A model generated the notes under the pieces. That model searched no databases, was not told the origin of the DNA, and saw only the letters and a program-made list of their open reading frames with translations. Made by a program: the position numbers and the translations under genes. Below, in pieces: positions 3,345 through 49,185 of a stretch of DNA of 64,000 nt (position 1 is the stretch's first letter; each line of letters starts with the position of its first letter). This DNA is from a virus. Its lineage: Duplodnaviria > Heunggongvirae > Uroviricota > Caudoviricetes. The DNA lies in the IMG/VR virus record IMGVR_UViG_3300047462_000211; one strand, given 5' to 3'.

Positions 3345-3358
3345 ATTAATATTTATAT
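3316..3358 (-). repeat. 43-nt block identical to 6129..6171, covering the start codon, first 9 codons and 14 nt of upstream sequence (ATATAAATATTAAT-ATG) of two paralogous giant genes
   Basis: Direct comparison of the two regions: tttatttttgttgttgatatttctgtcatattaatatttatat is present in both. TATAAATA lies 5 nt upstream of the ATG on the coding strand. Confidence 0.85.
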
Positions 3359-6157: not shown

Positions 6158-6171
6158 ATTAATATTTATAT
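6129..6171 (-). repeat. Second copy of the 43-nt start-region block (see 3316..3358)
   Basis: Identical sequence to 3316..3358. Confidence 0.85.
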
Positions 6172-6193
6172 TTGATTTTTTTAAAACAAATTA

Positions 6194-11388: not shown

Positions 11389-12390
11389 TTGGGATATGTA
11401 CGTTACCACACACCATCTTTCAAAATTGGTGGATGGAATTTTGCCGCCGTAATTGACCATACCTATGAAACTGGCAACATCATTCGTGCATTGCCAAATG
11501 AAACGATTCCAGACAAATTCAAGGAAACTTCGCCTATTTGTGAGCATTGCAATATCAATCGATATCGCAAGGATACCTATGTGCTTCGTTCTGATGATGA
11601 GGAATTCAAGCAAGTTGGTAAAACCTGTTTGAAGGATTTTACTGGTCATGACCCAATGCATTTGGCGCGTTTGGCTGAATATATTGGTGCAATGCGCGAA
11701 GATATTAATAGCGGAATGCAAGAAATTGGTGGTGGTTTTCGTATTACTTATGATTTGCAAAAATATTTGCTTATGTGTGCTAAAAGCATTCGCCAAAATG
11801 GTTGGGTTTCTCGTTCCGTTGCAAAGGATGATTCCAGCAAACTTGCAACCGCTGATGATGCATTAAACATGTATAATAAAGGTGTTTGCGGCTGGCTTAA
11901 GGCTGCGGAAGAAGACAAAAATTTGGTTATGGCTGCTTTGGCATGGGCGGAAAGCCTTTTTGAAAAAGAAGATAAATCAGAATATGAATATAATATTAGC
12001 ATCATTGCTGGTTCAGAATTTATTGAGCCGCGCTCTTGTGGTCTTGCTGCCAGCATTGTGGGGGTTTATGTAAAGAATGAGGAACGTAAGCGCATTCAGG
12101 CTGGTATGATGAAAGGTGATTTTATTGGCGAAGTTGGTCAAAAAATCAAAGACCTTCCAGTAAAAGTTTTGGTCAAACGTTACATTGATAGTGGATTTGG
12201 TAGCACAATGTGCAAATTTTCTGATAAGGATGGGAATATTCTTACTTGGTTTGCTACCACAAACACTGATTTTCAAATTGATGACCATATTGTGATTTCT
12301 GCCAAAATTAAGAAGCATGATGTTTATCAAGGTGTTAAAAGCACATTAATTTCTCATTGTAAGGTAAACGGTCTGATGAAAAATCTGTGA
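11389..12390 (+). CDS. Hypothetical protein (about 333 aa) with CEHC..C cysteine cluster; TTG start or frameshift fusion with the upstream 11222..11452 frame
   Basis: ORF track. No ATG until far downstream; codon 11389 is TTG. The upstream ORF in the other frame overlaps by 64 nt. The many ORFs on both strands inside it are spurious. Confidence 0.5.
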   Translation: MGYVRYHTPSFKIGGWNFAAVIDHTYETGNIIRALPNETIPDKFKETSPICEHCNINRYRKDTYVLRSDDEEFKQVGKTCLKDFTGHDPMHLARLAEYIGAMREDINSGMQEIGGGFRITYDLQKYLLMCAKSIRQNGWVSRSVAKDDSSKLATADDALNMYNKGVCGWLKAAEEDKNLVMAALAWAESLFEKEDKSEYEYNISIIAGSEFIEPRSCGLAASIVGVYVKNEERKRIQAGMMKGDFIGEVGQKIKDLPVKVLVKRYIDSGFGSTMCKFSDKDGNILTWFATTNTDFQIDDHIVISAKIKKHDVYQGVKSTLISHCKVNGLMKNL

Positions 12391-13726: not shown

Positions 13727-14166
13727 GATATTTGTTCGCGGACGTAAATCACAGGTATAATAATATGACCGCCAACGAAATTGGCGAATGTCTTCCTATG
13801 CCTGGAGATTTTGTTTATCCAATTGGGTGCGAAAGTCTTCCTGGTGATAAAAATTTTTCTCGTGAAGAAAAGCCTTACGGCTATTCAATGTATTTTTTGT
13901 GGAGTTTGGTTAATAGAAACAAACTAAAGAATTATTGTTGGGATTATGAAGACAGATTGCAGACTCAAAATCCAGAAAAATTTGAGGAAGCAAAAACTTC
14001 TATAAACGAAATTATGGAGAATTATTCGCGCAAACAAACTTCAGAATTTCTTTCGATTTACACTGGAAAAAAATGCAAAGCTGTTGCATTGATTGATTCA
14101 TGTAATCTTGCTAATGGTCGCCCGCTCAAATTGTTTATTTACAAAATCCTGGAAACAAAAGAATGA
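13723..14166 (+). CDS. Hypothetical protein (147 aa)
   Basis: ORF with 4-nt start/stop overlaps to both neighbours (operon). Confidence 0.5.
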   Translation: MRYLFADVNHRYNNMTANEIGECLPMPGDFVYPIGCESLPGDKNFSREEKPYGYSMYFLWSLVNRNKLKNYCWDYEDRLQTQNPEKFEEAKTSINEIMENYSRKQTSEFLSIYTGKKCKAVALIDSCNLANGRPLKLFIYKILETKE

Positions 14167-14699
14167 AAATTATTTATAAAACTGGTGATTTATTCAAGAA
14201 CAATGAAAAAATCATTGTGCATTCTTGCAATATTCTTGGTGGATTTGGTTCTGGAGTTGCTGGCGTTATAGCCAAGCTTTATCCTGAAGTGCGCGAAGAA
14301 TATATAAAAGAATTTAATACCAATAAATTAAAACTCGGTTCGATTTTATGGACCAAAACTAAAGATGGTTTTGTTGAAATTGGTAATATGATGTGCCAGC
14401 CAACCGTCAAGGGGATGCGTGGATTATCGCATTGGGGAGAACGCCATGTTTCTTATGATGCGGTTGATGATGCCTTTGCTAATCTCGATGACGAAATGCG
14501 CGGAAAGGCAGATTTTGGAAAAACTTTTAAAGAAGTCATAAATTCAAAGAATGAAGTAAATTTATTTTCAGTTGCCATGCCATTGATTGGTTCGGCATTG
14601 GGGGGTGGTTCTTGGTCAATTATTTCTTCGATTATTGAATATCGGTCAAAGAATTTTCAACCAATTGTTTATACTCTTGATGGGAAAATTCCAGAATGA
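14163..14699 (+). CDS. Macro-domain (ADP-ribose binding/processing) protein
   Basis: N-terminal macro signature KIIVHSCNILGGFGSGVAGVIAKLYPE (Gly-rich ADP-ribose pocket), and a later Gly-rich loop LIGSALGGGSW. Confidence 0.7.
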   Translation: MKIIYKTGDLFKNNEKIIVHSCNILGGFGSGVAGVIAKLYPEVREEYIKEFNTNKLKLGSILWTKTKDGFVEIGNMMCQPTVKGMRGLSHWGERHVSYDAVDDAFANLDDEMRGKADFGKTFKEVINSKNEVNLFSVAMPLIGSALGGGSWSIISSIIEYRSKNFQPIVYTLDGKIPE

Positions 14700-18762: not shown

Positions 18763-19194
18763 TTATACATTTTCCACCTTTATTTTTTTAATGTTTGTGC
18801 TGTTTAATTCTGTAATACCTGGAACAATTAATTTCAATATTGGATACATAATTGATTCTTTTAAATGTAAAAACATATAGTTCTTTTTTCTATGAAAATG
18901 CTGTATCAAAACATCTTCCTTAATTCCATTAATTGTTTCTTCTAATCGGTAGGCTTCTAAAATATCTATTTTTGTATAATATGAAAAAAACTTTTTACAA
19001 ATATTGTTTTCAATATATCCATATGGAATAAATCTTTCTGGCTGGTGAACCACATCATTCCAATAATCATAAACATATTTTCCACCAAAATGAACAAATC
19101 TAATTCCGACAGACATGACGTTTTTGTTTAAACCATCGGATTCAAAAATAGCATTTTCTGAACCGTCATCAAAATCAAATGGAATTTTTTTCAT
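18763..19194 (-). CDS. Hypothetical protein (143 aa)
   Basis: ORF track. Stop/start coupling with 19191..20873. Confidence 0.45.
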   Translation of the reverse strand: MKKIPFDFDDGSENAIFESDGLNKNVMSVGIRFVHFGGKYVYDYWNDVVHQPERFIPYGYIENNICKKFFSYYTKIDILEAYRLEETINGIKEDVLIQHFHRKKNYMFLHLKESIMYPILKLIVPGITELNSTNIKKIKVENV

Positions 19195-20873
19195 TTTAAA
19201 CTTTTAATTACCCAATTCCAATAATCTTTAATTGTCCAAGATGATACAAGAGGAAAACTTGGAACAGAACGAACGTCATAATCAGAAACAAAACAATAAT
19301 TCTGTTCAATCATTTTAATATCATTTGAAATTTCATTATTCTTTTTCCAATAATCATACACAGATTGCAAAGCTTTATCAAATAAAATAGTATCTTTTTT
19401 TGGATAATTATTAATAATTATGTTGCAATAATATGGTCTATATGAATCTGGTTCATTCGTGCATTTATCAATTTGTTTGAAACCATAATCACTAAAAATA
19501 ATTGGTTTAGAATTTGGAACCCATTGGCTATATCCACCATGAGCAACAACCCCCATTCCATCTTTGGCATCATACATAGCTTGATGTTGATTGTTCCACC
19601 ACCATCTTATTCTCTTTAAAGCCAATAAATCTTGATTTATTGTATAGGGATTTCTTTGTTGACTGGCTCTATCTGATGATGGGGAAGGAGAAATATAATT
19701 ATTTTCTAAAAATCCAGATGTATTATCTTTGTAATACCAAGAAAAATATTCTCCACTTTCAATATTTGTTTTCAAATAATCTTGATTATATAAATTAGGA
19801 AAACCAGCCAATCCTAAATTATTCATTACGTTTGGACTTGGTGGATAACTTGTTTTTGAAGCTGCTGGAGCATTATTCCAATTATCAACATCAATACCAC
19901 CAGATGGCGTCCAATCAGATAACGGCATATAATTCTTTATTGCAATATATGAGATATTTGGATTTGAATATAATTGGTCAAGATGTGGAATTTTGGCATT
20001 TACATCATTATGATAAATGCCCATCCAATTTTTCCAATCAACAGAATATGCAATATTCGTATTTGGTAAAATGGTTTGAACCGCATCACATAAGCCATTT
20101 AAAGAGGCTACAAACGGGTAATCCCATATTGTGGCATTGGCGTCAGTTTGTCCTTTAACAGTCCAGGAAGCGCCTCTAATGGCTTCTAAGCCAGATAATC
20201 CATCACCTATGAAAAATAAATCAACGCCAGATATGGCACATAATTTTGCATAATGTAAAATCATTCTACTATAAGAAAAATCTGTTCCAGAATATAATAA
20301 TCCATCATTTGTATATGAAAACATTGAAGGGGTTGCATTCCCAACGAAATTATTGATGGCATTTGAAGCATTTTCAGATATATCAGCAGAATAAGTAATT
20401 TCAGAAGATTTCGTTTCATCTGTCATAATTAATTTTGGTGTAAATGAAACAGTAAATCCTTGAGATTTAAGATATTTTATTAATCTAAAAACTGATTTAT
20501 CAGATGGTGTTCCAGGACCAGAAATTGGAAATAAGTTAGAAGTGGATGTTAATCCAGAACATGTCCAGGATTCTTCTGACCATTTGCTATTTTGATATAC
20601 TTGGGTTTTTTTGCAATTTGATGATGGAAATACTTTCGCTTGACTTGCATCTAAATTATCACAAAACCAAGAAACTATAATATTGATATTTTTACAAGCT
20701 GGATAATTTTCTTTTAAATTATTAATGGCAATGATTAAATCGGTTGCTTTAAGAGAACCATCAGAAAAACAATTTACTATATTTCCGTTTACTCGATATG
20801 GCAAAGTATCATAGACAAATTCACCAATTGAAGGATTTAAATTTATTCCAGTAATGTAATAATTTGGTAGCAA
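19191..20873 (-). CDS. Large hypothetical protein (560 aa), possibly carbohydrate-active/TIM-barrel-like, perhaps tail-associated
   Basis: Long ORF with many W/Y/N/D residues and a segment GVDLFFIGDGLSGLEAIRGASW. The functional guess is weak. TTG start. Confidence 0.3.
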   Translation of the reverse strand: MLPNYYITGINLNPSIGEFVYDTLPYRVNGNIVNCFSDGSLKATDLIIAINNLKENYPACKNINIIVSWFCDNLDASQAKVFPSSNCKKTQVYQNSKWSEESWTCSGLTSTSNLFPISGPGTPSDKSVFRLIKYLKSQGFTVSFTPKLIMTDETKSSEITYSADISENASNAINNFVGNATPSMFSYTNDGLLYSGTDFSYSRMILHYAKLCAISGVDLFFIGDGLSGLEAIRGASWTVKGQTDANATIWDYPFVASLNGLCDAVQTILPNTNIAYSVDWKNWMGIYHNDVNAKIPHLDQLYSNPNISYIAIKNYMPLSDWTPSGGIDVDNWNNAPAASKTSYPPSPNVMNNLGLAGFPNLYNQDYLKTNIESGEYFSWYYKDNTSGFLENNYISPSPSSDRASQQRNPYTINQDLLALKRIRWWWNNQHQAMYDAKDGMGVVAHGGYSQWVPNSKPIIFSDYGFKQIDKCTNEPDSYRPYYCNIIINNYPKKDTILFDKALQSVYDYWKKNNEISNDIKMIEQNYCFVSDYDVRSVPSFPLVSSWTIKDYWNWVIKSLK

Positions 20874-25007: not shown

Positions 25008-26024
25008 ATGTTGTCTGTTCCATATCATAGTTTAGTTTTATTATCTAATAGAAATTTAAAGAATAAATTTCCTATCCATGAATTTGTGGACATTGAAAGC
25101 ATCAAAGGAACATTAAATCACAGAGATTGTAATCCAGATGTTTTATTTGAAGAAATTTTTTATGTATTGGAAAGTAAATTTCGATTAGGTGATAGAGTTG
25201 TTATGGTAGTTAATGACCAATATCAAAAAGAATTATATGCAAAATTTTGTGAAGATAATGGTGCAAAGATTTTTGTTGGTGATGCTGATTATAAACCTGT
25301 GTTGCAACCTAATCCAAAAAACTTCTCTGGTATTACCGTAATTGGTGATGTTCATGGCGATATTGATAATTTACGGTCTGCTATAAAATGGGGGATTGGA
25401 CGTTCCAATCTACTTTGTTTTTTAGGTGATATTATTGATTATGGTAATGATAATATTGAAGTAATGAACACAGTATATTCCTTGGTTATGCAAGGAAAAG
25501 CAATTATGATGATGGGCAATCATGAACGAAAAATATTGAAATGGTTAAACAATAAAAAAGTAAAATTATCCGATGGTAATATGAAAACTGTCAATAATTT
25601 GAATAAACTATCCGATGAAGAAAAACAAAAATGGATAGGTAGATTTAAATCTTTATGTGCTCATACAAAAGTTGTATATGAAATAGATGATTTTGTATTC
25701 ACACATGGTGCTGTTCATCAATCATATTGGTTAAAAGAAAATAATAAAAATTTAGAACATTATGCGTATTATGGCGAAAGCAGTGATAATAATTCTTTAA
25801 ATTATCGATTAATGTACAATTGGGTAAATTATATTCCAAAAAACAAAACAGTTATTGTTGGACATGATACACGTTCTACGGTTGCACCATTGATTATGAA
25901 TTCTTCCAATGGTGGTAGTGCTATTTTTTTAGACACTGGTTCTGGAAAAGGTGGCAAATTAACCAGTGCAGATTTAAAATTTGATAATAATAAATTGAAA
26001 TTATCTAATTATAACAAATATTAA
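25008..26024 (+). CDS. PPP-family metallophosphoesterase (lambda Ser/Thr protein phosphatase-like) with N-terminal extension
   Basis: Signature motifs in the right order: GDVHGD, GDIIDYG, GNHE. Confidence 0.75.
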   Translation: MLSVPYHSLVLLSNRNLKNKFPIHEFVDIESIKGTLNHRDCNPDVLFEEIFYVLESKFRLGDRVVMVVNDQYQKELYAKFCEDNGAKIFVGDADYKPVLQPNPKNFSGITVIGDVHGDIDNLRSAIKWGIGRSNLLCFLGDIIDYGNDNIEVMNTVYSLVMQGKAIMMMGNHERKILKWLNNKKVKLSDGNMKTVNNLNKLSDEEKQKWIGRFKSLCAHTKVVYEIDDFVFTHGAVHQSYWLKENNKNLEHYAYYGESSDNNSLNYRLMYNWVNYIPKNKTVIVGHDTRSTVAPLIMNSSNGGSAIFLDTGSGKGGKLTSADLKFDNNKLKLSNYNKY

Positions 26025-28654: not shown

Positions 28655-28841
28655 TATTTCTAATCGTGTTAGCAAAGACGTTGATGGTAATATCACCACT
28701 CGTTTATTTTGTTATAAACAATACGACATTTTGGGAAATTTCCATGGTGAAGAAATGACACAGATTGATAATAACAAAACCATTCGTTACAAAATTCGTC
28801 AATTAAACCATAATGAATTGAAAAAATTGAATTTGGTATGA
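28632..28841 (+). CDS. Hypothetical protein (69 aa)
   Basis: ORF track. Confidence 0.3.
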   Translation: MNLKNNSDISNRVSKDVDGNITTRLFCYKQYDILGNFHGEEMTQIDNNKTIRYKIRQLNHNELKKLNLV

Positions 28842-29149
28842 GAACACTATATGTTCTTGCAGTAAATGAAGAACGAAAACAATATTCCGATAAAGAATAT
28901 TTGGAATTAATTGAAAAATTATTTAATTTATTTGGTACTGGTATAGTTGACTATTACCAATTTAAATCATTAAAGCCTAAATTAAAAAAAGAAATTAAAG
29001 AATTTGTTTCTCAAGAAAATCTTGATGTATTGTTTTCGAATAAATTAAGAAAAACAAAAATTTTAATTGTTTGGTATTTTGATTTTGATTATGAATTTAT
29101 TTATTTTGTAAATGAAAAAGATTTAGCTATGGCTAAATTGGTGTTATAA
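28838..29149 (+). CDS. Hypothetical protein (103 aa)
   Basis: ORF track. Confidence 0.4.
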   Translation: MRTLYVLAVNEERKQYSDKEYLELIEKLFNLFGTGIVDYYQFKSLKPKLKKEIKEFVSQENLDVLFSNKLRKTKILIVWYFDFDYEFIYFVNEKDLAMAKLVL

Positions 29150-29611
29150 AAATATCAAACTTTGCAAAGATTTATATCCGTCTCTCAAAACATTTTTTAT
29201 TTCATCTTCTGATAAATCTTTTGAGGCGACTTGGTTTTCGTTTGGTGAAACCGTAATATGTAAACGATACCCAATTTCGCCTTCAAGAGCCATTGGTTTA
29301 AGAGTTAACCAAATCCATTTTGCATCATTTGCAACTATTTCTAAACCAGAAACTTTTACATAATTTCTATTTAAAGCAAGCCGTTCCCAAGCAGAATTCT
29401 CGGTCCATGGATAATCTTTTGATAATTCTTCTGGTAAGAAACTCGAATCTAATTCTCTGGCAAAGGCTCTTAGCATTTTTAATGATATAGAATTATCAAT
29501 TTCAAAATCTCTGTATTTTCTTTTTACATAGATACCCAAGTCACCAAATACTGGTGTATCGGTTTGTAGAATTGGATTAAACCAACAATTTAAATGTCCT
29601 GGCTTTGTCAT
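29144..29611 (-). CDS. Hypothetical protein (155 aa)
   Basis: ORF track. Confidence 0.45.
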   Translation of the reverse strand: MTKPGHLNCWFNPILQTDTPVFGDLGIYVKRKYRDFEIDNSISLKMLRAFARELDSSFLPEELSKDYPWTENSAWERLALNRNYVKVSGLEIVANDAKWIWLTLKPMALEGEIGYRLHITVSPNENQVASKDLSEDEIKNVLRDGYKSLQSLIFL

Positions 29612-29622
29612 TTATATATTAT

Positions 29623-29967
29623 TTATGTTAATAATTTTGCTAACGTGCAATCTGATTGATTTTTGAAATAAAAATTATTTTTAACAATTAATTTATAAGG
29701 AAATTCTAATGGCATTGTTTCATAAGAAAATTTCCATTTTTTTTCATTAAAATTATTGTTGTTTGTGAAAAATTTTATTTCTAGTGGACAATAAAATTCA
29801 TAAAATCCTAATCCAAAAATATTATAATAAGTTTGAAAAATTTCTAAACCAAATAACTCACCGTATGATATAAATTGTTTTTCAAGTTTTATTATAACTG
29901 AATGGCAAAAAATATATTCATCTGTATGGCAAGTTGCATTTTCATATCTGTTTTCTTTTTTCATCAC
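29623..29967 (-). CDS. Small protein, member of the ..SDC(V/T)L.KLL C-terminal paralog family
   Basis: C-terminus FKNQSDCTLAKLLT resembles FENKSDCVLYKLLGGE of 38935..39120. Confidence 0.4.
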   Translation of the reverse strand: MMKKENRYENATCHTDEYIFCHSVIIKLEKQFISYGELFGLEIFQTYYNIFGLGFYEFYCPLEIKFFTNNNNFNEKKWKFSYETMPLEFPYKLIVKNNFYFKNQSDCTLAKLLT

Positions 29968-30623
29968 AATTTTCCAATAATTGTTGAAATTTTAGGTCTA
30001 TCTTCAAAAAGAGGATAAACCTGTGTTGGGTCAACGATAATCCATGATTTATCACCATTGCCTTCTGCAATGTTTTCAAAACAAACTCCATCATATCCTT
30101 TGTCTAAAAGCATGACATTCACGATTTCATTTTTCTTATCATATGTCAATTTTTTTATTTGCTGTTCTGAATATCCCGCTTCCAATAATATACCAACATA
30201 TTCTGGGTTTAACGCATTGATTTTCTTTGAAAAAAACGCAATATCTTTACTCATATATAATGGATTTGCAATATGTAAAAATGCAGGAATAATCATCGCA
30301 TGTTTGGGATAGATATCATATTCGTCATAAGTTCCCCAAGGATGTTCCCTGACAATTTTTAATTGGTCAGCGTGTTTGATATAATCTTCATGTAAATGTC
30401 TGTAGACAATTGAATCGGGGTCTCCAAACAACATACGCAATCTTTGATTTTCGGTTTCGTATGTTCCAAATTGCATCAAAATATGATAAGTTTTGTTTGG
30501 AATAATTGTTCCATGAAAAACGATTAAAGGATAACCATCTTTATCCAAAACTTTTGAATGACCTACCCATGACCAAAAGTTATAATCATTTTTTCTTATG
30601 TAGTAATTATCTTGGAATTTCAA
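29964..30623 (-). CDS. Hypothetical protein with HGT motif; possible H-Y-E-class ADP-ribosyltransferase / Tpt1-like fold
   Basis: PLIVFHGTIIPNK resembles the strand-1 HG(S/T) motif of DT/PARP/Tpt1-type ART folds. Speculative. Confidence 0.3.
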   Translation of the reverse strand: MKFQDNYYIRKNDYNFWSWVGHSKVLDKDGYPLIVFHGTIIPNKTYHILMQFGTYETENQRLRMLFGDPDSIVYRHLHEDYIKHADQLKIVREHPWGTYDEYDIYPKHAMIIPAFLHIANPLYMSKDIAFFSKKINALNPEYVGILLEAGYSEQQIKKLTYDKKNEIVNVMLLDKGYDGVCFENIAEGNGDKSWIIVDPTQVYPLFEDRPKISTIIGKL

Positions 30624-31203
30624 AATTTTCTCTTTTTATTTTTATGTAAATATTTTCTCTACTTTCATCAAACAATTTTATAATTTTTTCTGTTGGATTT
30701 TTTATGTAATATATTGCTGTAAAATCTTGCATTATCGCTTCCAATTGAATATTTTCAGATGGATTTTTTAAATATCCAATTAACAAAGGATTTTTCTTTA
30801 CTGTCAATAATTGAACATTTTCTGTTGGTTTTTTTATATATTGTATAACATCTGGGTCAAGTTCTATAGCCGTCAATTGAACATTTTCAGATGGATTGTC
30901 TATCCATTTAATATATTTTGGAAAATATTTTATTCCTGCTAATTGAAATTCTTCTGATGGATTATCGATTTTATTAAATTTATAATCTAATTCTTGTAAA
31001 TCAGAAAGATACAATAATTTGAATAAAACCAAATCTTCGTTGTTGGCAAATTGAATTGTTTGTTTCGTGCCATCATATGTTATATTCTGAACCAAATTAT
31101 TATCTTTAAGGAATTCTTTTAAATAAGCATTAGCATATATCGAATGCTTTTCATCGTCTGTTGGAAATTGTAAAGTTATATCAACAAAATAATATTTACC
31201 CAT
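30607..31203 (-). CDS. Repeat protein with tandem NPSEN(V/I)QL.AI..dp..I.YIK degenerate repeats (DUF4116-like)
   Basis: At least four visible repeats in the C-terminal half. Confidence 0.5.
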   Translation of the reverse strand: MGKYYFVDITLQFPTDDEKHSIYANAYLKEFLKDNNLVQNITYDGTKQTIQFANNEDLVLFKLLYLSDLQELDYKFNKIDNPSEEFQLAGIKYFPKYIKWIDNPSENVQLTAIELDPDVIQYIKKPTENVQLLTVKKNPLLIGYLKNPSENIQLEAIMQDFTAIYYIKNPTEKIIKLFDESRENIYIKIKRENFEIPR

Positions 31204-31777
31204 TTGCAGTTTCTTTCAATTTCTTCAAAACATTTTCCAACATCTCTTTTTTGGAATTATTTCCAGTAATTAAAATATATTTTTTAAAATTATCAAGATA
31301 TCTTCCAAACCAACCTTCATTTAATTGAAACAAATCAATAATTGTTGGTTCAAATTTTGCCAATAATGGAACATATTCAATAATTCTTGGTTCTGGTTTT
31401 CCTTCAAGTAAATGCTTTGGAGTGACAATAGAATCATTCCAAACAACCAACCAAAGATTTTCAATTTTATCTTTATCTTTTATTCCATAACCACTCCAAT
31501 ACGTTTTTGTTTTCCAAAAAATATAAGGATTATGCACCGAATTTAATTTTTTTCCAATTAACGAATCGCCATATCCCCATGACATAAATTCTTTGAAATC
31601 TCTGACATTAGTATTTGGTGATTTATTTTTGTTAAACTCAGACAGACATTTTTCAACAAAAGATATGTTTATACCAACAAAGGGTTCGTTAAACATTTTG
31701 CTAATTTTTCTACCAAATTCGTTGTATTCAACAACGTAATCATGTATTTCATTATATGTTTCTGGAATTTTTTTCAT
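31196..31777 (-). CDS. Hypothetical protein (193 aa)
   Basis: ORF track. Confidence 0.45.
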   Translation of the reverse strand: MKKIPETYNEIHDYVVEYNEFGRKISKMFNEPFVGINISFVEKCLSEFNKNKSPNTNVRDFKEFMSWGYGDSLIGKKLNSVHNPYIFWKTKTYWSGYGIKDKDKIENLWLVVWNDSIVTPKHLLEGKPEPRIIEYVPLLAKFEPTIIDLFQLNEGWFGRYLDNFKKYILITGNNSKKEMLENVLKKLKETANG

Positions 31778-32047
31778 TCAAAATCATCCAAATAAAGTAA
31801 TTGCGCAGCTTCAGAATAAAAGGGTGAAGATTTTAGTCCGTCTTTATAACCATCTTTATAAGAATCATAATCCCATTTAGAACATGCAGTGCAATTTGCT
31901 AAATCAGCCGTAAGTGTTGTCAAATCTGGATTTATTTTTTTTTACATAATTAAAAGCATTTTTCTTACCACGCTCATATTCGTTTTTCCCGGTATTGATA
32001 TGGTGTTTTCGTTTTACAAATCCAAGAAAAAAATCTAATGAATATAT

Positions 32048-32638
32048 TCATTCATATAACTCCAATATGGCATTTGTTCCTGCATCAACAATATCCCGAC
32101 GAGACCCTATTCCCGCATATACCAAACCATCTTTAAATTTTGGGGGAGATATGATTTCATTCCAATTTGTTCCAGACCATTCATGCCATTTTTCTGTAAT
32201 CTGACAAAATACATAACACGGACAAGCATTGAAATTATTTTTTACAACAAACATTGCAGTTGCCCAAGCGGTTCCTCCAGCAATTTTTCCTTGTTCAATT
32301 TTTGAAACTGCATAACAAGCATCAGAATCTTTGATTTGATAATAATTTCTTCGAAGAAGATTATTTACGTAAAGACTACTTGAAGGAAATTTCCTTCCCA
32401 CAACTTCATTGGCTTGAATCAAATATTCATCAGCAATATTCAATTCATCTTGTGTTAAAACATGAATATAGGATAACTGTTTATTGTCTTTTTCAAATTT
32501 TAATTTATGATTTTTGAATGTAAAATGAACTAAATCATGACCAGCAGCAAGCGCACAAGCGCCGAAAATAGAATCAGCCCCTTCTGCTCCACCACTCATA
32601 CAAACGCTTTTTACAATTTCCATAAATATCCTTAGCAT
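32048..32638 (-). CDS. Rossmann-fold DprA/LOG (SLOG)-like protein
   Basis: N-terminal SGGAEGADSIFGACALAAGH and later KIAGGTAWAT resemble DprA/Smf and LOG Gly-rich nucleotide-binding motifs. Confidence 0.35.
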   Translation of the reverse strand: MLRIFMEIVKSVCMSGGAEGADSIFGACALAAGHDLVHFTFKNHKLKFEKDNKQLSYIHVLTQDELNIADEYLIQANEVVGRKFPSSSLYVNNLLRRNYYQIKDSDACYAVSKIEQGKIAGGTAWATAMFVVKNNFNACPCYVFCQITEKWHEWSGTNWNEIISPPKFKDGLVYAGIGSRRDIVDAGTNAILELYE

Positions 32639-32707
32639 AATACCATGAAAAAGTCACTGGTAAAAAATAAATTCTGATAGATTCTTTGATATCATTAATT
32701 AATATCT

Positions 32708-32953
32708 TCATTTTGAAATCTTGTCCGCTTTTTTCTGCACTTCTTTTCGTGCACAAGATTTCCAAATATGACCAAAATTTTTCCACCAACGCGCTTTATC
32801 TTCTGGTGTATCGTTATTCCCAACCATCCAAACAGCCGCTTCCAATTCTGCAATTCTATCAGCCGCCAAATTCAAAACATCACGAATTTGTGCGCCATCA
32901 GAAAAAATGGAATTCGCCGCCGTTTTAACTTGTGATAAAACTGATTTTTTCAT
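32708..32953 (-). CDS. Hypothetical protein (81 aa)
   Basis: ORF track. Confidence 0.35.
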   Translation of the reverse strand: MKKSVLSQVKTAANSIFSDGAQIRDVLNLAADRIAELEAAVWMVGNNDTPEDKARWWKNFGHIWKSCARKEVQKKADKISK

Positions 32954-33406
32954 TTAACTTCCCATTGCCAATGACCAAGTATCGCCTTGTTTATAACCGC
33001 CTTCTAATACCAAATCACCAATATCATGACCCCAAATGCCATATTTCCCATGAGATTTTTTGCGGTTTAACATACCAGAAATATGTCCAGGGTCTTCGCC
33101 TTCTTCTTCATAGATTTTCTTATATGAAGAAATAACTGCTTCAATAAATTGTTTCAAAGTCCAAGAAGAACCATCTTCATGAGTTAATTCAAAACTCGCA
33201 TGATTGGTCAAAGGATAGGTTATTTTGAATTTAATGATATTTGATTTTTCGATGATTTTGTTTTCATCTGTCATCCCTTTATAATCATCAGGACCAGGAA
33301 ACATTTCACCACCACCAATATCAATTGGTTCGCGAAGATTTAATCTTTCACCATCACAAATATCAACAACACAAAGAAATTTTTTCATTTCAGTTTTTCC
33401 TACCAA
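32954..33406 (-). CDS. Hypothetical protein (150 aa) with GIWGHDIGDLVLEGG motif
   Basis: ORF track. Confidence 0.45.
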   Translation of the reverse strand: MVGKTEMKKFLCVVDICDGERLNLREPIDIGGGEMFPGPDDYKGMTDENKIIEKSNIIKFKITYPLTNHASFELTHEDGSSWTLKQFIEAVISSYKKIYEEEGEDPGHISGMLNRKKSHGKYGIWGHDIGDLVLEGGYKQGDTWSLAMGS

Positions 33407-33600
33407 AAAAATAATTCAACAAGGTCATCAATTTCTAATTCTAAATGAATCAATTTGTTTTCCAAATTAAATTCAATAAAAAATCCTAATATATTTTCAC
33501 TTTTAAAATAATAAGGACCAGAAGACAAAACATGCACCACGTGACCGCGATACATAATATCTTGTCCAGCTTTGATTTTTTCTGCTTTGCGTAATATCAT
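33400..33600 (-). CDS. Hypothetical protein (66 aa)
   Basis: ORF track. Confidence 0.3.
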   Translation of the reverse strand: MILRKAEKIKAGQDIMYRGHVVHVLSSGPYYFKSENILGFFIEFNLENKLIHLELEIDDLVELFFW

Positions 33601-33814
33601 TCAATGTGCTTAAATTAAATAAAAACTCTTGTCAAGTAATTTTTATTCAGAATCACAAGGTTTTTGGACAAACTTTTCTATATTTTGAGACGAATTTTTT
33701 TCTTTTGTTGTTCTTTCGACAATTACGTTATAATACAAATAAGCAAATTTTGTTGAGTGAAAAACGTTATCTTCCCAAATACCATCAGTGCGTTTAATTT
33801 TGTCCATACATTAT

Positions 33815-34120
33815 TTATTTTTCCCCATGAAAAATATCACCAAGTTTTGCCAAGGTTAATTGTATTTCGAATTCCTTATGAAATTTAGGAAAAAATCTTT
33901 CAATTTTATCATAATCGGTATAATCTTTGTAATTTTTGTTATTGATTTTTTCACGACATAATGAACGTAATTTACTATCATCAGGATAACGTTTAAATGT
34001 TATTTTTTTATTTCCACGTCTACCCCAAAAATTTATATAACCGCTTGGGGTTAAAATCCATCCCCAATATTTATCATGTGTGTCTTCATGGCACCAAAGA
34101 AACTTGTCGATTTTTAGCAT
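33815..34120 (-). CDS. WGR-domain protein (101 aa)
   Basis: DKYWGWIL...INFWGRRGNKKITFKRY...KINNKNYKDY matches the WGR consensus (dKFY.lql...wGRiG..G...f.s.....f.kli.eK.kGY). Confidence 0.6.
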   Translation of the reverse strand: MLKIDKFLWCHEDTHDKYWGWILTPSGYINFWGRRGNKKITFKRYPDDSKLRSLCREKINNKNYKDYTDYDKIERFFPKFHKEFEIQLTLAKLGDIFHGEK

Positions 34121-34494
34121 TGTTCACTCCAAGAACTATGTTGATTTTCTATATCAACCAAAACTTCAAACAATTCTTCAACAGGTAATTTCTCATATTC
34201 TTGAAAAACATCATGTATCCAGATATTATCAAAATTGCATCCAAGTTGTTTTAGTTTTAACATTTCTTCACCTACAGTTAAAATAAAAGCATTAATATTT
34301 AAAACTCTTGGATTTTTTGTTTTTGTAATCATATTTGAAAAACTGTTCAAAAAGAAAATATATCGAACGGGTCTGCCATTAATAAAAACATATTTTATAT
34401 TATCAATTACAGCAAACATTGGTTTTGCTAATTTTGATAATACAATTTGATGTTCAACTGTTAAAGGCACTTTCTGTAGTGAATTTTCCATCAA
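34114..34494 (-). CDS. Hypothetical protein (126 aa)
   Basis: ORF track. Confidence 0.4.
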   Translation of the reverse strand: MMENSLQKVPLTVEHQIVLSKLAKPMFAVIDNIKYVFINGRPVRYIFFLNSFSNMITKTKNPRVLNINAFILTVGEEMLKLKQLGCNFDNIWIHDVFQEYEKLPVEELFEVLVDIENQHSSWSEQC

Positions 34495-35083
34495 TTATAC
34501 AATCTTTCCATTTATCAAACAAAAATACTTTAGATACAACATTGGGTTCTGGAATAAATCCATAACTCAGATATTTGGTTAATCTTTCTGGCGAAGTAAT
34601 ATGCTTATAGGTATCAGTAAATTGCAATATTTTTTTCTGATTATGTTCATGGAAATCTTTATGCAATACAAAGTTCTTTCCATCAGTAATACCATTACAA
34701 CAAGTAAAATCAATTGATTCCAAAACATCTTTCCATGAATTAAAAAATATAAATTTTACAAAATTAAATGTGATGATACTATCTTTTGCTTTTAAATTAC
34801 AAAATTTACTGATTTTTCTATATTGTTCTTCATCTTTGAAATAAACATCAACATCTCTTGGTAATTTATCTTCAAATTTATTGCGAACATAGCCACCAGC
34901 AATCCAAGGACCATTTTCTAAATCAAAAATTTTATTGTCAGAAAAATCATCATTTATAAAAGTGCCATGATAATATTTCGAATCTGATAAATAATTAGAA
35001 AGAGAATTATCGAATGCCTTATCAGATTCTAAACGCGGATGGAACTTTATTACTGACTTTAGCGGATGACGTAATTGATACAT
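34454..35083 (-). CDS. Minimal Pol-beta-superfamily nucleotidyltransferase (GG-type, CCA/PAP head-like)
   Basis: AGGYVRNKFEDKLPRDVDVYF fits the GGxVRD...D.D nucleotidyltransferase head motif. The track ORF extends to 35281 but that overlaps the conserved start of the tail-fibre gene at 35014 on the other strand. The only downstream Met is at 35083. Confidence 0.5.
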   Translation of the reverse strand: MYQLRHPLKSVIKFHPRLESDKAFDNSLSNYLSDSKYYHGTFINDDFSDNKIFDLENGPWIAGGYVRNKFEDKLPRDVDVYFKDEEQYRKISKFCNLKAKDSIITFNFVKFIFFNSWKDVLESIDFTCCNGITDGKNFVLHKDFHEHNQKKILQFTDTYKHITSPERLTKYLSYGFIPEPNVVSKVFLFDKWKDCIIDGKFTTESAFNS

Positions 35084-36450
35084 CCACAACTTCACTTTCT
35101 CTCTTAGGGAAAGATGCTTCTGGTTATGGTCAATATATTGCTGACAATTTTGTTCAACTTCTTGAAAATTTTGCAAGCCCGAATCCTCCAAATAGTCCAC
35201 AAGCTGGACAATTATGGTATAATAAAGGGTCATCATTATTAAGTGTATATAATTCTTCAACTTGGATTCCATTAGCCACACAAGCTTGGGTTAGTTCTCA
35301 AAATTATGTTTTACAAAGCACATTAACGAATTTTGCATCTCAAAGTTTTGTATTACAACAAGTTGCTGCCAACATAGTCAACACAGCCCTTACAGGCACG
35401 CCTACAGCCCCTACAGCATCTTTAGGTACTAACTCATCCCAAATTGCTACAACTGCCTTTGTAACTTCTTCAATCAATTTAATTAACGTAAATCACACAC
35501 TTACAATAACAGGCGATGTTACAGGCACAACGCCTTATGGAACAGCTAATGAATCCTTTGCCTTAACATTAGCGCCATCTGGTGTAACACCAGGAACATA
35601 TAATTCAGTTGTTGTTAATTCTAAAGGATTGGTTATTTCTGGTAGTGTAACAAATACTGGCGGCGGAAGTGGCGGTGGAACAACATTTACAACACCAGTA
35701 CAATTTGATAACTCAACAAATGTTGCAACAACCGCTTTTGTTCAAAGAGCACTTGGTAATTATTCAAATTATGTAAATGTTAATTCACAAGGAACAATCG
35801 TAACTTCGCAACTTGGTTCATCGATTGCGATTAATTCCACAACAAATAATTCTTATATCACAACAATCCCAGAAGCCGTAAATGCTTCTACTTTTCTTTC
35901 TTTTTATAATAATTCAACAGTTAATCAACAAATCCAAACAACGAATTCAAAATTCTATGGTCCAAATGGTTCTGGAACAACAACATTTACGATATATCCA
36001 AACGAAGTAATTGATGTTGTTGCAAATGGAACAAATTGGATAGTTAAATTAAATAAAATGAGAACCAGTGCTGGTCCATCTGTTTGGAATTATAGCGCAT
36101 CAACTGTACAACCAACTTATGTTTGGGGAACAAATGATGGAATAAACATGAACATTTATAATCCATCAAATTTAAATGTTGCTACAGTTTCTTCAATCGC
36201 TTGGAATAATGTAATTGGCAAACCAACAGATTTATCTTATTTCACAAATGGTCCAGGCTATATTGCTGGTGGTGTTAGAACAGCAGCAGGAATTGCCGTA
36301 GGTTCTCCAACTGGAAATTGTGGTAATTGTGGCGGTGTTGCAACAGGAAATTGCACAACATATTTAACTTTGAACACAACAGGAAGTTTTAGTATGACAT
36401 ATGATGTTGTTAATTGCACAACACCAACAGACTGTTCTAATTGCGGTTAA
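35014..36450 (+). CDS. Tail fibre protein (478 aa) with Phage_fiber_2 repeat and Cys-rich tip
   Basis: N-terminal module (..GYGQY..DNFVQLLENFA...P.AGQLWYN) shared with 51290, 52556 and 53685. TGTPTAPTASLGTNSSQIATTAFV equals the phage tail-fibre repeat. C-terminus GNCGNCGG..GNC..NC..DCSNCG. Confidence 0.8.
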   Translation: MPYQILNADGTLLLTLADDVIDTSTTSLSLLGKDASGYGQYIADNFVQLLENFASPNPPNSPQAGQLWYNKGSSLLSVYNSSTWIPLATQAWVSSQNYVLQSTLTNFASQSFVLQQVAANIVNTALTGTPTAPTASLGTNSSQIATTAFVTSSINLINVNHTLTITGDVTGTTPYGTANESFALTLAPSGVTPGTYNSVVVNSKGLVISGSVTNTGGGSGGGTTFTTPVQFDNSTNVATTAFVQRALGNYSNYVNVNSQGTIVTSQLGSSIAINSTTNNSYITTIPEAVNASTFLSFYNNSTVNQQIQTTNSKFYGPNGSGTTTFTIYPNEVIDVVANGTNWIVKLNKMRTSAGPSVWNYSASTVQPTYVWGTNDGINMNIYNPSNLNVATVSSIAWNNVIGKPTDLSYFTNGPGYIAGGVRTAAGIAVGSPTGNCGNCGGVATGNCTTYLTLNTTGSFSMTYDVVNCTTPTDCSNCG

Positions 36451-36845
36451 ATAATAATTATTGGGAAACCACGCACCGCACCAGCCGTTTCTATATATAA
36501 TTCTCCATTATTGTTAATTTTTAATTTTCCCTTAAAAAATAATCTTGTCGATTCCAAACGCCAAACTTCATCTGTTCTAAATATATCTGGTACTAAATCA
36601 TTAGTTGGTTTAAAAACTTTGGAATGACCATGAATCGCATAAACAAAATATTTTTGTTTTGGATTTGTTATAATTGTTGTTTTCCAATCATCATACCCAC
36701 CAATCGCCATCAAACATTTTTCTATTGATGGAGCAAAACATATTCTTTTTATTTTGTGGTCTTCAACTGGGTCCATTTTTGATGGAATTTGAGGGTCAAA
36801 CCAAACAGTTTTCCCATGATATTTTTCTGACAAATGATAATACAT
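36447..36845 (-). CDS. Hypothetical protein (132 aa)
   Basis: ORF track. Convergent with the fibre gene. Confidence 0.45.
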   Translation of the reverse strand: MYYHLSEKYHGKTVWFDPQIPSKMDPVEDHKIKRICFAPSIEKCLMAIGGYDDWKTTIITNPKQKYFVYAIHGHSKVFKPTNDLVPDIFRTDEVWRLESTRLFFKGKLKINNNGELYIETAGAVRGFPIIII

Positions 36846-46205: not shown

Positions 46206-46741
46206 AAGAAAAATAATATCAAAAATAAATAAAAATATCTATAAATAAATTTATGAGATTTATTGAATTATTTGAAGGCAGAGAATCGCCTTTATATCAC
46301 GGCACAGACCTTTTTGCTGCTATGGAAATTATAAACAAAAATGAAATTTTGAATCGAACTTATATGTGTCAAAAAAAACTTTGGTAATTTAAAATTGACC
46401 AATTAAAATTATCTTATAATCATAAAATAATTCCAGTAGATTATTGGCAACCTGTAGATTCAAAAATTACTGTAAGAAATCCACAAAAAACCAAGGTTTT
46501 TACAGCAAACTTGACGAGGATTAATTATGAAGCAGAAGAATTTTGTGTTGGTTCTATTAAACCATTAAATAAATATCTTTTGCAAATTTTGATGAAAACA
46601 TCTTTTCTTGAAAATCTTAAAAGCAGTAAATGATTGGCACGATGAATATTCGATAATAACATCACACCCATTATTTAAATTATATTAACTTATTTAATAT
46701 TAAAATTTTCAATAAATATCTGATAAAAAGGGAATTTTTAT

Positions 46742-47396: not shown

Positions 47397-47705
47397 TTAA
47401 ATCAAACAAAGTTTAAATAATGTTGCATCATTTTTTGATTTGAATGCAAATTCTTTTTCATTAAATACCCAATCTTCATTACAATTTTCTTGGCACCAAT
47501 GAATTAAATTATTTAGTTCTAAAAATTTAAAACATCTATGGATAACAGTATATCCAAAAGTTTCGTCAATTATTTTTACATATTTTGGATAAAAACAGGA
47601 AATTTCTGTTTGCTCTATGTTACGTTTTCTTGGTGGCATAGATAAACAACTGTAAAGTATATCAATTTTTAAAAAATATTCAGAAATACTATCACCAAAA
47701 CTCAT
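47397..47705 (-). CDS. Small WC..NC-motif protein (102 aa), paralog family member
   Basis: IHWCQENCNEDWVF....FKSKNDATLFKL. Confidence 0.5.
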   Translation of the reverse strand: MSFGDSISEYFLKIDILYSCLSMPPRKRNIEQTEISCFYPKYVKIIDETFGYTVIHRCFKFLELNNLIHWCQENCNEDWVFNEKEFAFKSKNDATLFKLCLI

Positions 47706-47784
47706 GAAATTATTTAGCGATTATAATTTATTGATTTTGATTATCTTTAATTTTATATTGAAGAATAAATTTTGGAAGCCAAAA

Positions 47785-49185
47785 ATGAAACCATATCAAG
47801 TTGTTGAAAAATTAGAAAAAACTCCTGGCAAAAAAGATAAAGAACAAATTCTTATTGAAGCATTTATGAGCAACAACCATGAATTTTTTATTGGTGCACA
47901 ATATGCGTTAGATAATTTGATTTCATTTGGTGTTAAACAAGTCGCACTAATTGATGATTCAGATTTAAATCCAGAAAATCCTGGAACTGTAAGTTTTGAT
48001 GATTTCATTGATTTATTGAAAAAATTATCAGCAAGAAAATTAACTGGTCATGCAGCAAGAGATGCTATTAATGAAATGGCATCTAATTGTCATGGTCCAA
48101 CATGGAATTCATTTTATCGAAGAGTTTTATTAAAGAATTTGCGATGTGGTGTTGATACATCAATCAATAAAGTTTTGGAAAAATTAAAAGCATATCCAGA
48201 AGCAGAAGAATTAAAAATCCCAGTATTTTCTTGCCAATTAGCAAGCGATGGTTCCAAACCACCACATAATAAGAAATTAAAATCGACTATGTATCTGCAA
48301 TTAAAAATAGATGGGTCAAGATTGCTGACCTTTCTTAATAAAGAAGATGGAACGGTTAAACAATATTCTCGTGTTGGTCATTTAAATGAAAATTTCTCAC
48401 ATATTACGGAACCTCTTAAAAAATTACTTCCTCATTTAAAAGAATCTGTTGTTTTTGATGGTGAAATAGTTGGTAAATCTTTTCAGGAATTGATGAAATC
48501 ATTTAGTAGAAAAACAGAAACAACCAATGATTCAAAACTTGCTTTATTTGATATGATTCCAATGAATGATTTCAAAAAAGGATATTGTGCATTATCACAA
48601 GAAAAACGACATTGGTTATTATCTGAATTTCAAACGTCTGGTTTGTTTACAAAATACACAAACGGTTTGGTTTATGTTTTGCCAGAAAAAATTGTAGATT
48701 TTGATACTGATGATGGACAAGAAGAATTCAAAAAATTTGTTAATTATGCTGCATCTTTACGTGTTAATGACCCAACAATTGAGGGTGTTATGGTCAAAGA
48801 TATGAAAGCACCCTATGAAGGTAAACGTGTTGATAAATGGTTAAAAATCAAACCGTTTGTTTCAGTATCTTTGACAGTAATGTCTGTAGAATTAGGTGAC
48901 AAAGATGGCAAATATAAAAATGTTATTGGAAATATCATTTGTGAAGGCATTGATGATGGTGTGAAAATAAAAGTTTCTGTAAGCAGTGGCATTACAGATG
49001 ATTTGCGTAAAGAATGGTTGGTTAAACCGCCTATTGGTTTTATTGTTGAAATTGAAGGTGATGCTTTTACATTAGATGAAGCGGCTATCAAAGAAGCAGA
49101 ATATACAGGAAATGACCCTGTTTATTCAATTCGTTTTCCAAGATACAAGGGACAAAGAGGATTTAAGGCTGGACAAAAAATTTGA
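47785..49185 (+). CDS. ATP-dependent DNA ligase
   Basis: Motif I LQLKIDGSR (KxDG), III VVFDGEIV, IV EGVMVKD, V DKWLKIK. The track start 47704 would overlap the divergent gene; the in-context ATG is at 47785. Confidence 0.85.
   Translation: MKPYQVVEKLEKTPGKKDKEQILIEAFMSNNHEFFIGAQYALDNLISFGVKQVALIDDSDLNPENPGTVSFDDFIDLLKKLSARKLTGHAARDAINEMASNCHGPTWNSFYRRVLLKNLRCGVDTSINKVLEKLKAYPEAEELKIPVFSCQLASDGSKPPHNKKLKSTMYLQLKIDGSRLLTFLNKEDGTVKQYSRVGHLNENFSHITEPLKKLLPHLKESVVFDGEIVGKSFQELMKSFSRKTETTNDSKLALFDMIPMNDFKKGYCALSQEKRHWLLSEFQTSGLFTKYTNGLVYVLPEKIVDFDTDDGQEEFKKFVNYAASLRVNDPTIEGVMVKDMKAPYEGKRVDKWLKIKPFVSVSLTVMSVELGDKDGKYKNVIGNIICEGIDDGVKIKVSVSSGITDDLRKEWLVKPPIGFIVEIEGDAFTLDEAAIKEAEYTGNDPVYSIRFPRYKGQRGFKAGQKI

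Follow-up and report, generated by a model that had tools for sequence, protein, structure and literature searches.

A minus-strand island of small phage genes encoding divergent ART, SLOG, WGR and nucleotidyltransferase family proteins

The window, i.e., the whole 64,000-nt stretch of DNA that was analyzed (IMG/VR record IMGVR_UViG_3300047462_000211, Caudoviricetes), contains an island of small minus-strand genes at 29144-35083. An initial annotation had described this island as a toolkit for ADP-ribose and nucleotide signaling, carrying an ADP-ribosyltransferase (ART)-like protein, a SLOG-like protein, a WGR domain and a minimal nucleotidyltransferase (NTase). It was found that each of these four genes is a divergent new member of an already known family. 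Fourteen co-directional open reading frames (ORFs) fill the island, so its description as a minus-strand block of small genes holds, and the four genes of interest are distributed in it as follows:

34454..35083, minus strand: predicted Gad2-like Pol-beta NTase, a short form with the NTase domain only, 209 amino acids (aa); PHROG match and Gad2 homology
33815..34120, minus strand: predicted free-standing WGR-like protein, 101 aa; structure prediction and fold search
32048..32638, minus strand: predicted SLOG-superfamily or "DprA-like" Rossmannoid protein, 196 aa; phrog_768
29964..30623, minus strand: predicted free-standing ART-PolyVal-family ADP-ribosyltransferase, 219 aa; Pfam PF18760 and hhalign

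Ten of the 13 ORF junctions overlap or leave at most 11 nt (-41 to +11 nt), and the remaining three have gaps of 42, 69 and 124 nt, which suggests one to three transcription units. The low-coordinate border is a convergent junction (29144/29149) with a plus-strand gene at 28838-29149, and the high-coordinate border is a divergent tail-fiber gene starting at 35014. GC skew becomes negative across the island. Both a good ribosome-binding site and the homologue in a related contig (L001, see below) fix the start of the fiber gene. For the NTase gene, no alternative ATG, GTG or TTG start was found between 35014 and the catalytic AGG motif, leaving the ATG at 35083 as the sole usable one. The NTase gene (ATG 35083, minus strand) and the fiber gene (ATG 35014, plus strand) thus overlap in antisense by 70 nt at their 5' ends (35014-35083). 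Scans for sigma-70-type promoters and for terminators gave fewer promoter-like sites than shuffled sequence and were uninformative.

The window has a GC content of about 30%, and its structural genes include a GTA-like tail protein (19191-20873), the tail fiber (35014-36450) and virion structural proteins. No nucleotide-level relative of the island was found by megablast against 50,697 phage records, and the GTA-like tail protein shows at most 30% identity to anything in the same records. The island proteins are recorded from one contig only, of 89,465 bp. Taken together, these observations indicate a novel, fairly large phage.

Family assignment of the four proteins

The protein encoded at 29964-30623, initially noted as ART-like, was confirmed by profile comparison as a predicted ADP-ribosyltransferase of the ART-PolyVal family. 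Its Pfam match to PF18760 (ART-PolyVal) is marginal, with 31.3 bits against a gathering cut-off of 31.2, and covers profile positions 43-130 only, in the C-terminal half; a match to phrog_21376 (2.8e-10) was also obtained. Support for the part outside the Pfam match comes from two embedded ART-PolyVal domains, one in a 3852-aa polyvalent protein from IMG/VR (L002; Pfam score 61.6 bits) and the other in a large protein encoded by Dolichospermum phage Dfl-JY45 (L005; 65.9 bits). The N-terminus of the window protein, FWSWVGHSKVLDKDGYPLIVFHGT, matches both domains, as does its N-terminal segment GYPLIVFHGT, and hhalign of the window ART family against the two domains gave a probability of 97.1% (E 6.4e-11) over 175 columns. 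Six close homologues, all of 212-221 aa, were retrieved by a word-indexed search, and precomputed PF18760 matches exist for five of them.

An alignment of the ART family with the two polyvalent-protein domains (A4) showed H37-G-T39, G176-Y-D178, P199 and Q201 to be invariant. The putative active-site His (H37, in HGT) and Asp (D178, in GYD) are therefore both conserved, their placement on strands 1 and 5 being read from the alignment alone. This is the arrangement of the Tox-ART-HYD2 clade, in which the active site consists of H on strand 1, Y on strand 2 and D on strand 5 (PMC5512222). The best candidate for the strand-2 Tyr is Y81, a position held by Y or F in relatives and by F in the two polyvalent-protein domains, with an uncertain alignment across an insert of about 60 residues. 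Of the H-Y-E geometry anticipated in the initial annotation, the His is thus in place, the position of the Tyr is uncertain, and the third residue is Asp, giving H-Y-D.

Homology with the ART-PolyVal domains (PF18760; Tox-ART-HYD2; Iyer et al. 2017, PMC5512222) spans the whole domain, and common to both are the N-terminal W-x-G-x-S-x-V-x-D…P-L-x-x-x-H-G-T, the G-Y-D and the C-terminal P-x-Q. Whereas those domains sit in virion-delivered polyproteins of 2,000-4,000 aa, the window ART is a stand-alone ORF of 219 aa and is not embedded in a large multidomain polyvalent protein. In addition, its HGT strand is separated from the remainder of the domain by a conserved, His-rich segment of about 60 residues (approximately residues 40-100), which is specific to the stand-alone subfamily and is not seen in the polyvalent-protein domains. 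H76, H78, H84 and H94 in this segment are invariant in the six close homologues, and the insert could be a metal site. The window ART may be likened in function to Alt, ModA and ModB of phage T4, phage-encoded ARTs that reprogram the host early, an analogy that has been invoked for ART-PolyVal (PMC5512222). The T4 enzymes nevertheless belong to another ART clade (R-S-E, as opposed to H-Y-D), and no sequence relationship between them and the window ART was detected. A structure model of the ART was of poor quality, and phmmer and profile searches against PDB sequences gave nothing significant.

A degenerate second YHGT-containing fragment had also been noted at 46253. The region 46253-46633 (plus strand) is a single frame broken by one TAA at 46385-46387 and represents either a nonsense-mutated gene or two tiny ORFs. 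As a second ART it was rejected: its 126-aa read-through matches no Pfam family, has only the tetrapeptide context in common with the ART, and gave 0.3% in hhalign against the ART profile.

The product of the gene at 32048-32638 was confirmed as SLOG/DprA-like at the level of PHROG and motifs, in line with its first annotation as a putative DprA/LOG-like protein. Residues 11-130 match phrog_768, "DprA-like DNA recombination-mediator protein" (5.4e-13). No curated SLOG family in Pfam was matched above its cut-off, the nearest being a weak YAcAr (SLOG) match on the Gly-rich loop (14.2 bits versus a cut-off of 28.2), and a profile search against PDB sequences gave no match. The residues S15-G-G-A18, G20, D22 and G121-G-T123 are invariant in the SLOG alignment (A8), corresponding to the motifs S-G-G-A-x-G-x-D and G-G-T. 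A Gly-rich loop after strand 1 and a GG(x)T motif are reportedly the features by which Burroughs and co-workers defined SLOG in 2015. Homologues with 32-40% identity, several of them annotated as DprA-like, were found in 87 phage records, including jumbo phages (Atu_ph07, Phosso, and jumbo phages of Salmonella and Yersinia), the T4-like Cr30 and crAss-like phages. A further 279 IMG/VR stretches contain homologues, and the family is found mostly in large phages.

SLOG has been reported in 31% of jumbo phages, and immune signals derived from ADP-ribose are the predicted targets that viral SLOGs would degrade or bind (Iyer et al. 2022, PMC9503650). The window protein has the Gly-rich loop and GGT motif of the viral SLOG domains of the YpsA-like clade (PMC9503650) and of phrog_768, a likeness drawn at superfamily level. 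It is free-standing, as are most viral SLOGs in that survey. It is neither fused nor adjacent to Macro or NADAR, however, which is the context that argues for an ADP-ribose role (PMC9503650). In Klebsiella phage Pylas (NC_049444.1, 42434-42934; L009 1501-2001), a SLOG homologue with 36% identity was observed inside a 3819-aa N4-like virion RNA polymerase, showing that the SLOG family can be delivered with an injected protein.

For the 101-aa protein at 33815-34120, in which a WGR domain had been recognized initially, structure prediction confirmed a putative divergent, minimal WGR-fold protein, although the Pfam WGR model (PF05406) does not match it even at E values up to 10. Searches of PDB sequences with the single sequence and with a five-sequence profile also found nothing. 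The AlphaFold2 model (predicted local distance difference test score 89.5, predicted template-modeling score 0.80) consists of a four-stranded sheet, a helix and a C-terminal helical extension. Its top Foldseek match was 2ra8 with a probability of 1.00, and Pfam identifies the part of 2ra8 that was matched as a true WGR domain (70.5 bits). The protein contains the WGR motif itself (W32-G33-R34). Five close relatives were retrieved by word-indexed search, and a profile search of 1.84 billion representative proteins returned only 84 clusters of this family. Across 80 of the relatives K17, W19 and Y64 are invariant, and F31, W32, G33, R35 and K58 are at least 90% conserved. WGR is the sole Pfam family matched by more than one member; two of the 80 members reach E ≤0.01 with the Pfam model (best 0.003). 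In the opposite direction, the 80-member profile found its best match among PDB sequences in the WGR domain of 2ra8, at a non-significant E value of 0.067; the K-x-W, W-G-R and K-G-Y motifs are aligned.

Most of the WGR-family clusters are stand-alone proteins of 100-130 aa. In eight members the domain is preceded by an unassigned stretch of 100-150 aa and an acidic or Pro/Ala-rich linker, and one (P0083, 233 aa) has a tandemly duplicated domain. The family occurs on 19 IMG/VR contigs, of which 14 measure 100-600 kb, and among isolated phages only in Phosso and, weakly, in Atu_ph07. Compared with the WGR domains of PARP1-3 and of bacterial proteins such as 2ra8 (PF05406), the window protein stands alone, with no catalytic or partner domain, is too divergent for the PF05406 model, and has a conserved family-specific C-terminal helical extension (residues 70-98). 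WGR is mentioned nowhere in the 2022 survey of viral NAD+/ADP-ribose systems (PMC9503650).

The protein at 34454-35083, initially called a Pol-beta NTase, was confirmed and could be refined to a probable Gad2-like Pol-beta NTase. It gave no match in Pfam, and matched phrog_1614 "nucleotidyltransferase" (1.1e-5) and phrog_18122 (1.3e-10). Eleven phage records were retrieved by tblastn, among them Gad2 of Bacillus phages SPbetaL6 and SPbetaL7 (30% identity, 5e-7) and a protein of Lysinibacillus phage LC76P1 (39% identity, 5e-12); the word-indexed search gave one close relative. In pairwise blastp, residues 57-187 align to residues 25-172 of Gad2 with 30% identity over 148 aa (E 2e-13). Five aligned sequences (A5) share A62-G-G64, D77-x-D79-x-Y81, D125-F-T127, H141-x-D143-F and S164..R167..K170-Y171, which include the Pol-beta signature of A-G-G, D-x-D-x-Y and a third Asp in D-F-T.

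Gad2 is a predicted NTase of 400 aa; its deletion renders SPbetaL7 sensitive to Gabija, and resistance is regained with a homologue (Yirmiya et al., bioRxiv 10.1101/2023.05.01.538930). No useful literature after 2024 was found on its mechanism. Both Gad2 and the window protein are encoded among small phage accessory genes, and the NTase domains are homologous, with the catalytic and family-specific motifs all conserved. The window protein is shorter, with 209 aa, lacks the entire C-terminal region of Gad2 and begins with a different extension of about 55 aa. Moorella phage MTATph1 encodes a homologue of 205 aa, which indicates that short forms recur. The 126-aa ORF that follows the NTase gene (34114..34494) was rejected as a split-off Gad2 C-terminus since it is not homologous, and neither are the other downstream ORFs. 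Of the folds expected from the initial annotation, that of the WGR protein is hence supported by structure prediction and those of the ART and the NTase by sequence profiles only, with neither refuted.

Conservation of the gene combination

Conservation of the combination was assessed in a related phage and by counting neighboring genes within 10 kb on either side of 19 other WGR loci and 80 SLOG loci (1.29 Mb). A 38-kb metagenomic contig of a related phage (L001) contains fiber, WGR, SLOG and ART genes in the same order as the window, with 52-67% identity. The intervening genes differ, and the NTase is absent. Because the fiber, which has the same start, is equally conserved (59% identity), the synteny reflects overall relatedness. 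Around the 19 WGR loci, one SLOG gene, no ART and no NTase were found, and a conserved WGR neighborhood was rejected, as no neighbor family occurs in more than three of the 19 loci, antisense artifacts aside. The 80 SLOG loci have an ART-like gene nearby in four cases, WGR in one, macro in one and an NTase in none. The top 80 SLOG contigs include eight of the 19 WGR contigs, on which the two genes lie far apart. Likewise, the WGR-like and SLOG genes of Atu_ph07 and Phosso are more than 150 kb apart, and these phages have no detectable homologue of the window ART.

There is no evidence that the four genes form a conserved multi-gene system, and the combination dissolves outside one close relative. 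The coherent toolkit proposed initially is accordingly not upheld; what survives of the suggested co-occurrence in related phages is the WGR…SLOG…ART order in L001, while the NTase is missing there and the partners are scattered elsewhere. Co-location of domains in one phage should not count as a system before its conservation has been checked.

Further observations were made on the surroundings of these genes. In L001, a 250-aa gene (11542-12294, plus strand) lies immediately upstream of the ART with a 4-nt overlap and encodes a zincin-type HExxH motif (HEFIH), echoing the pairing of metallopeptidase and ART in polyvalent proteins; its position is taken in the window by the DUF4116-repeat gene and a 193-aa ORFan. 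The best SLOG match, with 46% identity, was found in a high-GC IMG/VR contig of 147 kb (L032; 9797-10591 and 15333-15998). On the same strand of this contig, 5 kb downstream of SLOG, lies a gene for a 221-aa stand-alone ART that belongs to the same subfamily as the window ART (phmmer 3e-30), with two large paralogous genes (554 and 588 aa) on the opposite strand in between. In another related contig (L031), a homologue of the metallophosphoesterase at 25008-26024 of the window is located directly downstream of the ART, so that this neighborhood is syntenic within the lineage.

Interpretation of the island

We infer the activities, targets, expression timing and any cooperation of the four genes from family membership. 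On balance, we think that the block is probably a lineage-specific accessory island of independent single-gene effectors for host takeover or counter-defense, in a novel AT-rich phage with a contig of at least 89 kb. The island would be transcribed divergently from the tail fiber in one to three tightly packed minus-strand units. By analogy with other phage ARTs, the H-Y-D-family ART may use NAD+ to ADP-ribosylate a host macromolecule early in infection. The SLOG protein would bind or process nucleotides, ADP-ribose-derived or other signals, as predicted in the literature, and the WGR protein is presumed to bind nucleic-acid ends. As judged from its homology, the Gad2-like NTase may neutralize Gabija-type defense and is the best candidate for a direct anti-defense enzyme. 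The ART-PolyVal and SLOG families both occur inside virion-delivered giant proteins (L002, the Dfl-JY45 protein and the Pylas polymerase), which fits a role in early infection (PMC5512222, PMC9503650). The counter-defense or host-takeover function suggested initially is hence plausible, with the Gad2 homology as its anchor and in agreement with published predictions for viral ARTs and SLOGs (PMC9503650, PMC5512222), but the coherence of the gene set was overstated.

Several observations weigh against this interpretation. Ten of the 14 island genes received no assignment in the family scans. The NTase lacks the C-terminal part of Gad2, about 230 aa, as the alignment ends at Gad2 residue ~172, and anti-Gabija activity is consequently not simply transferable to it. 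In Caulobacter phage Cr30 the SLOG homologue directly follows the gp46/47 recombination nuclease genes, and this position, together with the "DprA-like" annotation, suggests a role in DNA recombination instead. Finally, the WGR…SLOG…ART order in L001 and the occurrence of SLOG and ART within 10 kb of each other in a few distant phages, including L032, make some functional link between these genes possible.

In one alternative, the four genes would form one cooperating ADP-ribose or nucleotide-signaling module of a "split PARP-like" type, in which the WGR protein senses nucleic-acid ends and activates the ART in trans, and the SLOG protein and the NTase process the products. The location of all four genes in one co-directional, mostly overlapping block is consistent with this, as are the gene order kept in L001 despite different intervening genes, the homologous stand-alone ART 5 kb from SLOG in L032, and the ART-like genes near four of the 80 SLOG loci. 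We nevertheless regard it as very unlikely, because the L001 synteny is explained by the relatedness seen also in the fiber, this closest relative has no NTase, and the 19 other WGR loci show no conserved neighbor, with no ART, no NTase and a single SLOG nearby. Moreover, the genes are widely separated in Atu_ph07 and Phosso, which lack a detectable homologue of this ART, and the ART itself falls in the H-Y-D ART-PolyVal clade and not in the PARP clade. An extended form of the idea, in which the WGR family (84 clusters) would represent undescribed phage nucleic-acid-end sensors that in this lineage act in trans with the H-Y-D ART as a "split PARP" on host or phage targets, triggered by DNA or RNA ends made by host nucleases, is highly speculative and extremely improbable; if true, SLOG and the Gad2-like NTase would handle the nucleotide products.

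It is also improbable, to a lesser degree, that these are repair and recombination genes, with SLOG as a DprA-like mediator, WGR as an end binder working with a DNA ligase, the NTase in repair of tRNA or RNA 3' ends, and the ART as a Tpt1-like 2'-phosphotransferase. Neither the ART nor the NTase fits these roles: the former matches ART-PolyVal and has no PTS_2-RNA (Tpt1/KptA) match in Pfam, and the latter is, with 209 aa, too short for a CCA-adding enzyme and has Gad2-type proteins as its significant relatives. Its head motif (IAGGYVRN…DVDV) does resemble those of poly(A) and CCA enzymes, but the best PDB sequence match, E. coli poly(A) polymerase, is not significant (E 1.9). WGR domains are known to be fused to bacterial ATP-dependent DNA ligases (PMC7470946) and such a ligase is encoded at 47704-49185; it is, however, 12.6 kb from the island and on the other strand. 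The PHROG label of SLOG and the gene arrangement in Cr30 do favor recombination. No RNA ligase was found among the annotated genes of the window, where only this DNA ligase and the metallophosphoesterase at 25008-26024, which partly matches an "RNA ligase" PHROG, come near to one. An NCBIfam scan of the ten island proteins of at least 100 aa gave no match, and hence neither an equivalog of any repair gene nor a housekeeping match. Housekeeping RNA repair by Tpt1, CCA-adding enzyme and a syntenic RNA ligase, which the initial annotation had named as the reading that would overturn its own, was thus rejected. Rather unlikely, in our view, is a cluster of fast-evolving ORFan "morons" with no common theme, the four domains having come together by chance in an accessory-rich genome. 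The ten ORFs with no assignable family, the exchange of genes between the conserved ones in L001 and the rarity with which the partners adjoin at other WGR and SLOG loci would all agree with it, and the presence of SLOG in 31% of jumbo phages (PMC9503650) makes co-occurrence with other accessory genes expected. This explanation differs from that of independent effectors only by denying a conflict theme, to which the Gad2 homology, the ART-PolyVal and SLOG relatives in virion-injected proteins and the published enrichment of these families in conflict contexts all point.

If the roles proposed for independent effectors hold, the island offers four compact candidates (101-219 aa) for screening of anti-defense and host-takeover functions. 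The minimal Gad2-like NTase could then show which part of Gad2 is needed against Gabija, and the stand-alone ART-PolyVal protein would be far easier to study than the 2,000-4,000-aa polyvalent proteins that define its family. The most useful leads are the small WGR family and the minimal Gad2-like NTase.

Remaining island genes and other genes of the window

The other ten ORFs of the island, together with the tail-fiber and macro-domain genes outside it, are the following:

34114..34494, minus strand: 126-aa ORF whose start overlaps the NTase stop by 41 nt; no Pfam, PHROG, NCBIfam or PADLOC match
33643..33807, minus strand: 54-aa ORF from the ORF list; no Pfam match
33400..33600, minus strand: 66-aa ORF from the ORF list; no significant Pfam match
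32954..33406, minus strand: 150-aa ORF; no family match and no tblastn match in the 50,697 phage records
32708..32953, minus strand: 81-aa ORF from the ORF list; no Pfam match
31774..31923, minus strand: 49-aa ORF from the ORF list; no Pfam match
31196..31777, minus strand: 193-aa ORF; no family match and no phage tblastn match
30607..31203, minus strand: DUF4116-repeat protein, 198 aa; phrog_5925 (2.5e-24) and phrog_17056 (1.2e-23), neither with a function
29623..29967, minus strand: 114-aa ORF; sub-threshold YunG-like Pfam match (15 bits versus a cut-off of 27)
29144..29611, minus strand: 155-aa ORF, last of the block and convergent with 28838-29149; no family match
35014..36450, plus strand: tail-fiber gene, context outside the island; PHROG tail-fiber families down to 2.6e-15
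14163..14699, plus strand: macro-domain protein in a separate gene cluster 15 kb away; Pfam Macro

The Pfam match of the DUF4116-repeat protein (7.7e-5) falls under the cut-off. When the island proteins of at least 100 aa were scanned with PADLOC, no defense-system match was obtained, and two matches of at most 16 bits were judged to be noise. The macro domain, which the initial annotation had placed in an earlier operon, was recovered by Pfam (PF01661) with 30.5 bits against a cut-off of 22 (E 3.9e-7).

Elsewhere in the window, the genes include a DNA ligase, several DNA methyltransferases, a radical-SAM gene and a metallophosphoesterase; no tRNA genes were found in the window. The metallophosphoesterase (25008-26024, plus strand) is calcineurin-like (Pfam Metallophos 4.6e-13) and is extended at its N-terminus by about 100 aa. 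Four consecutive very large ORFs of 1104, 934, 602 and 1045 aa occupy 30-11139 on the minus strand and have no PHROG or Pfam match. Just past the fiber gene lies a 132-aa gene (36447-36845, minus strand), preceded at 36879-36852 by a strong sigma-70-like promoter, TTGACA-16-TAATAT with TG. Its protein has homologues with no assigned function in phiKZ-like Pseudomonas jumbo phages and in Burkholderia phage BCSR5.

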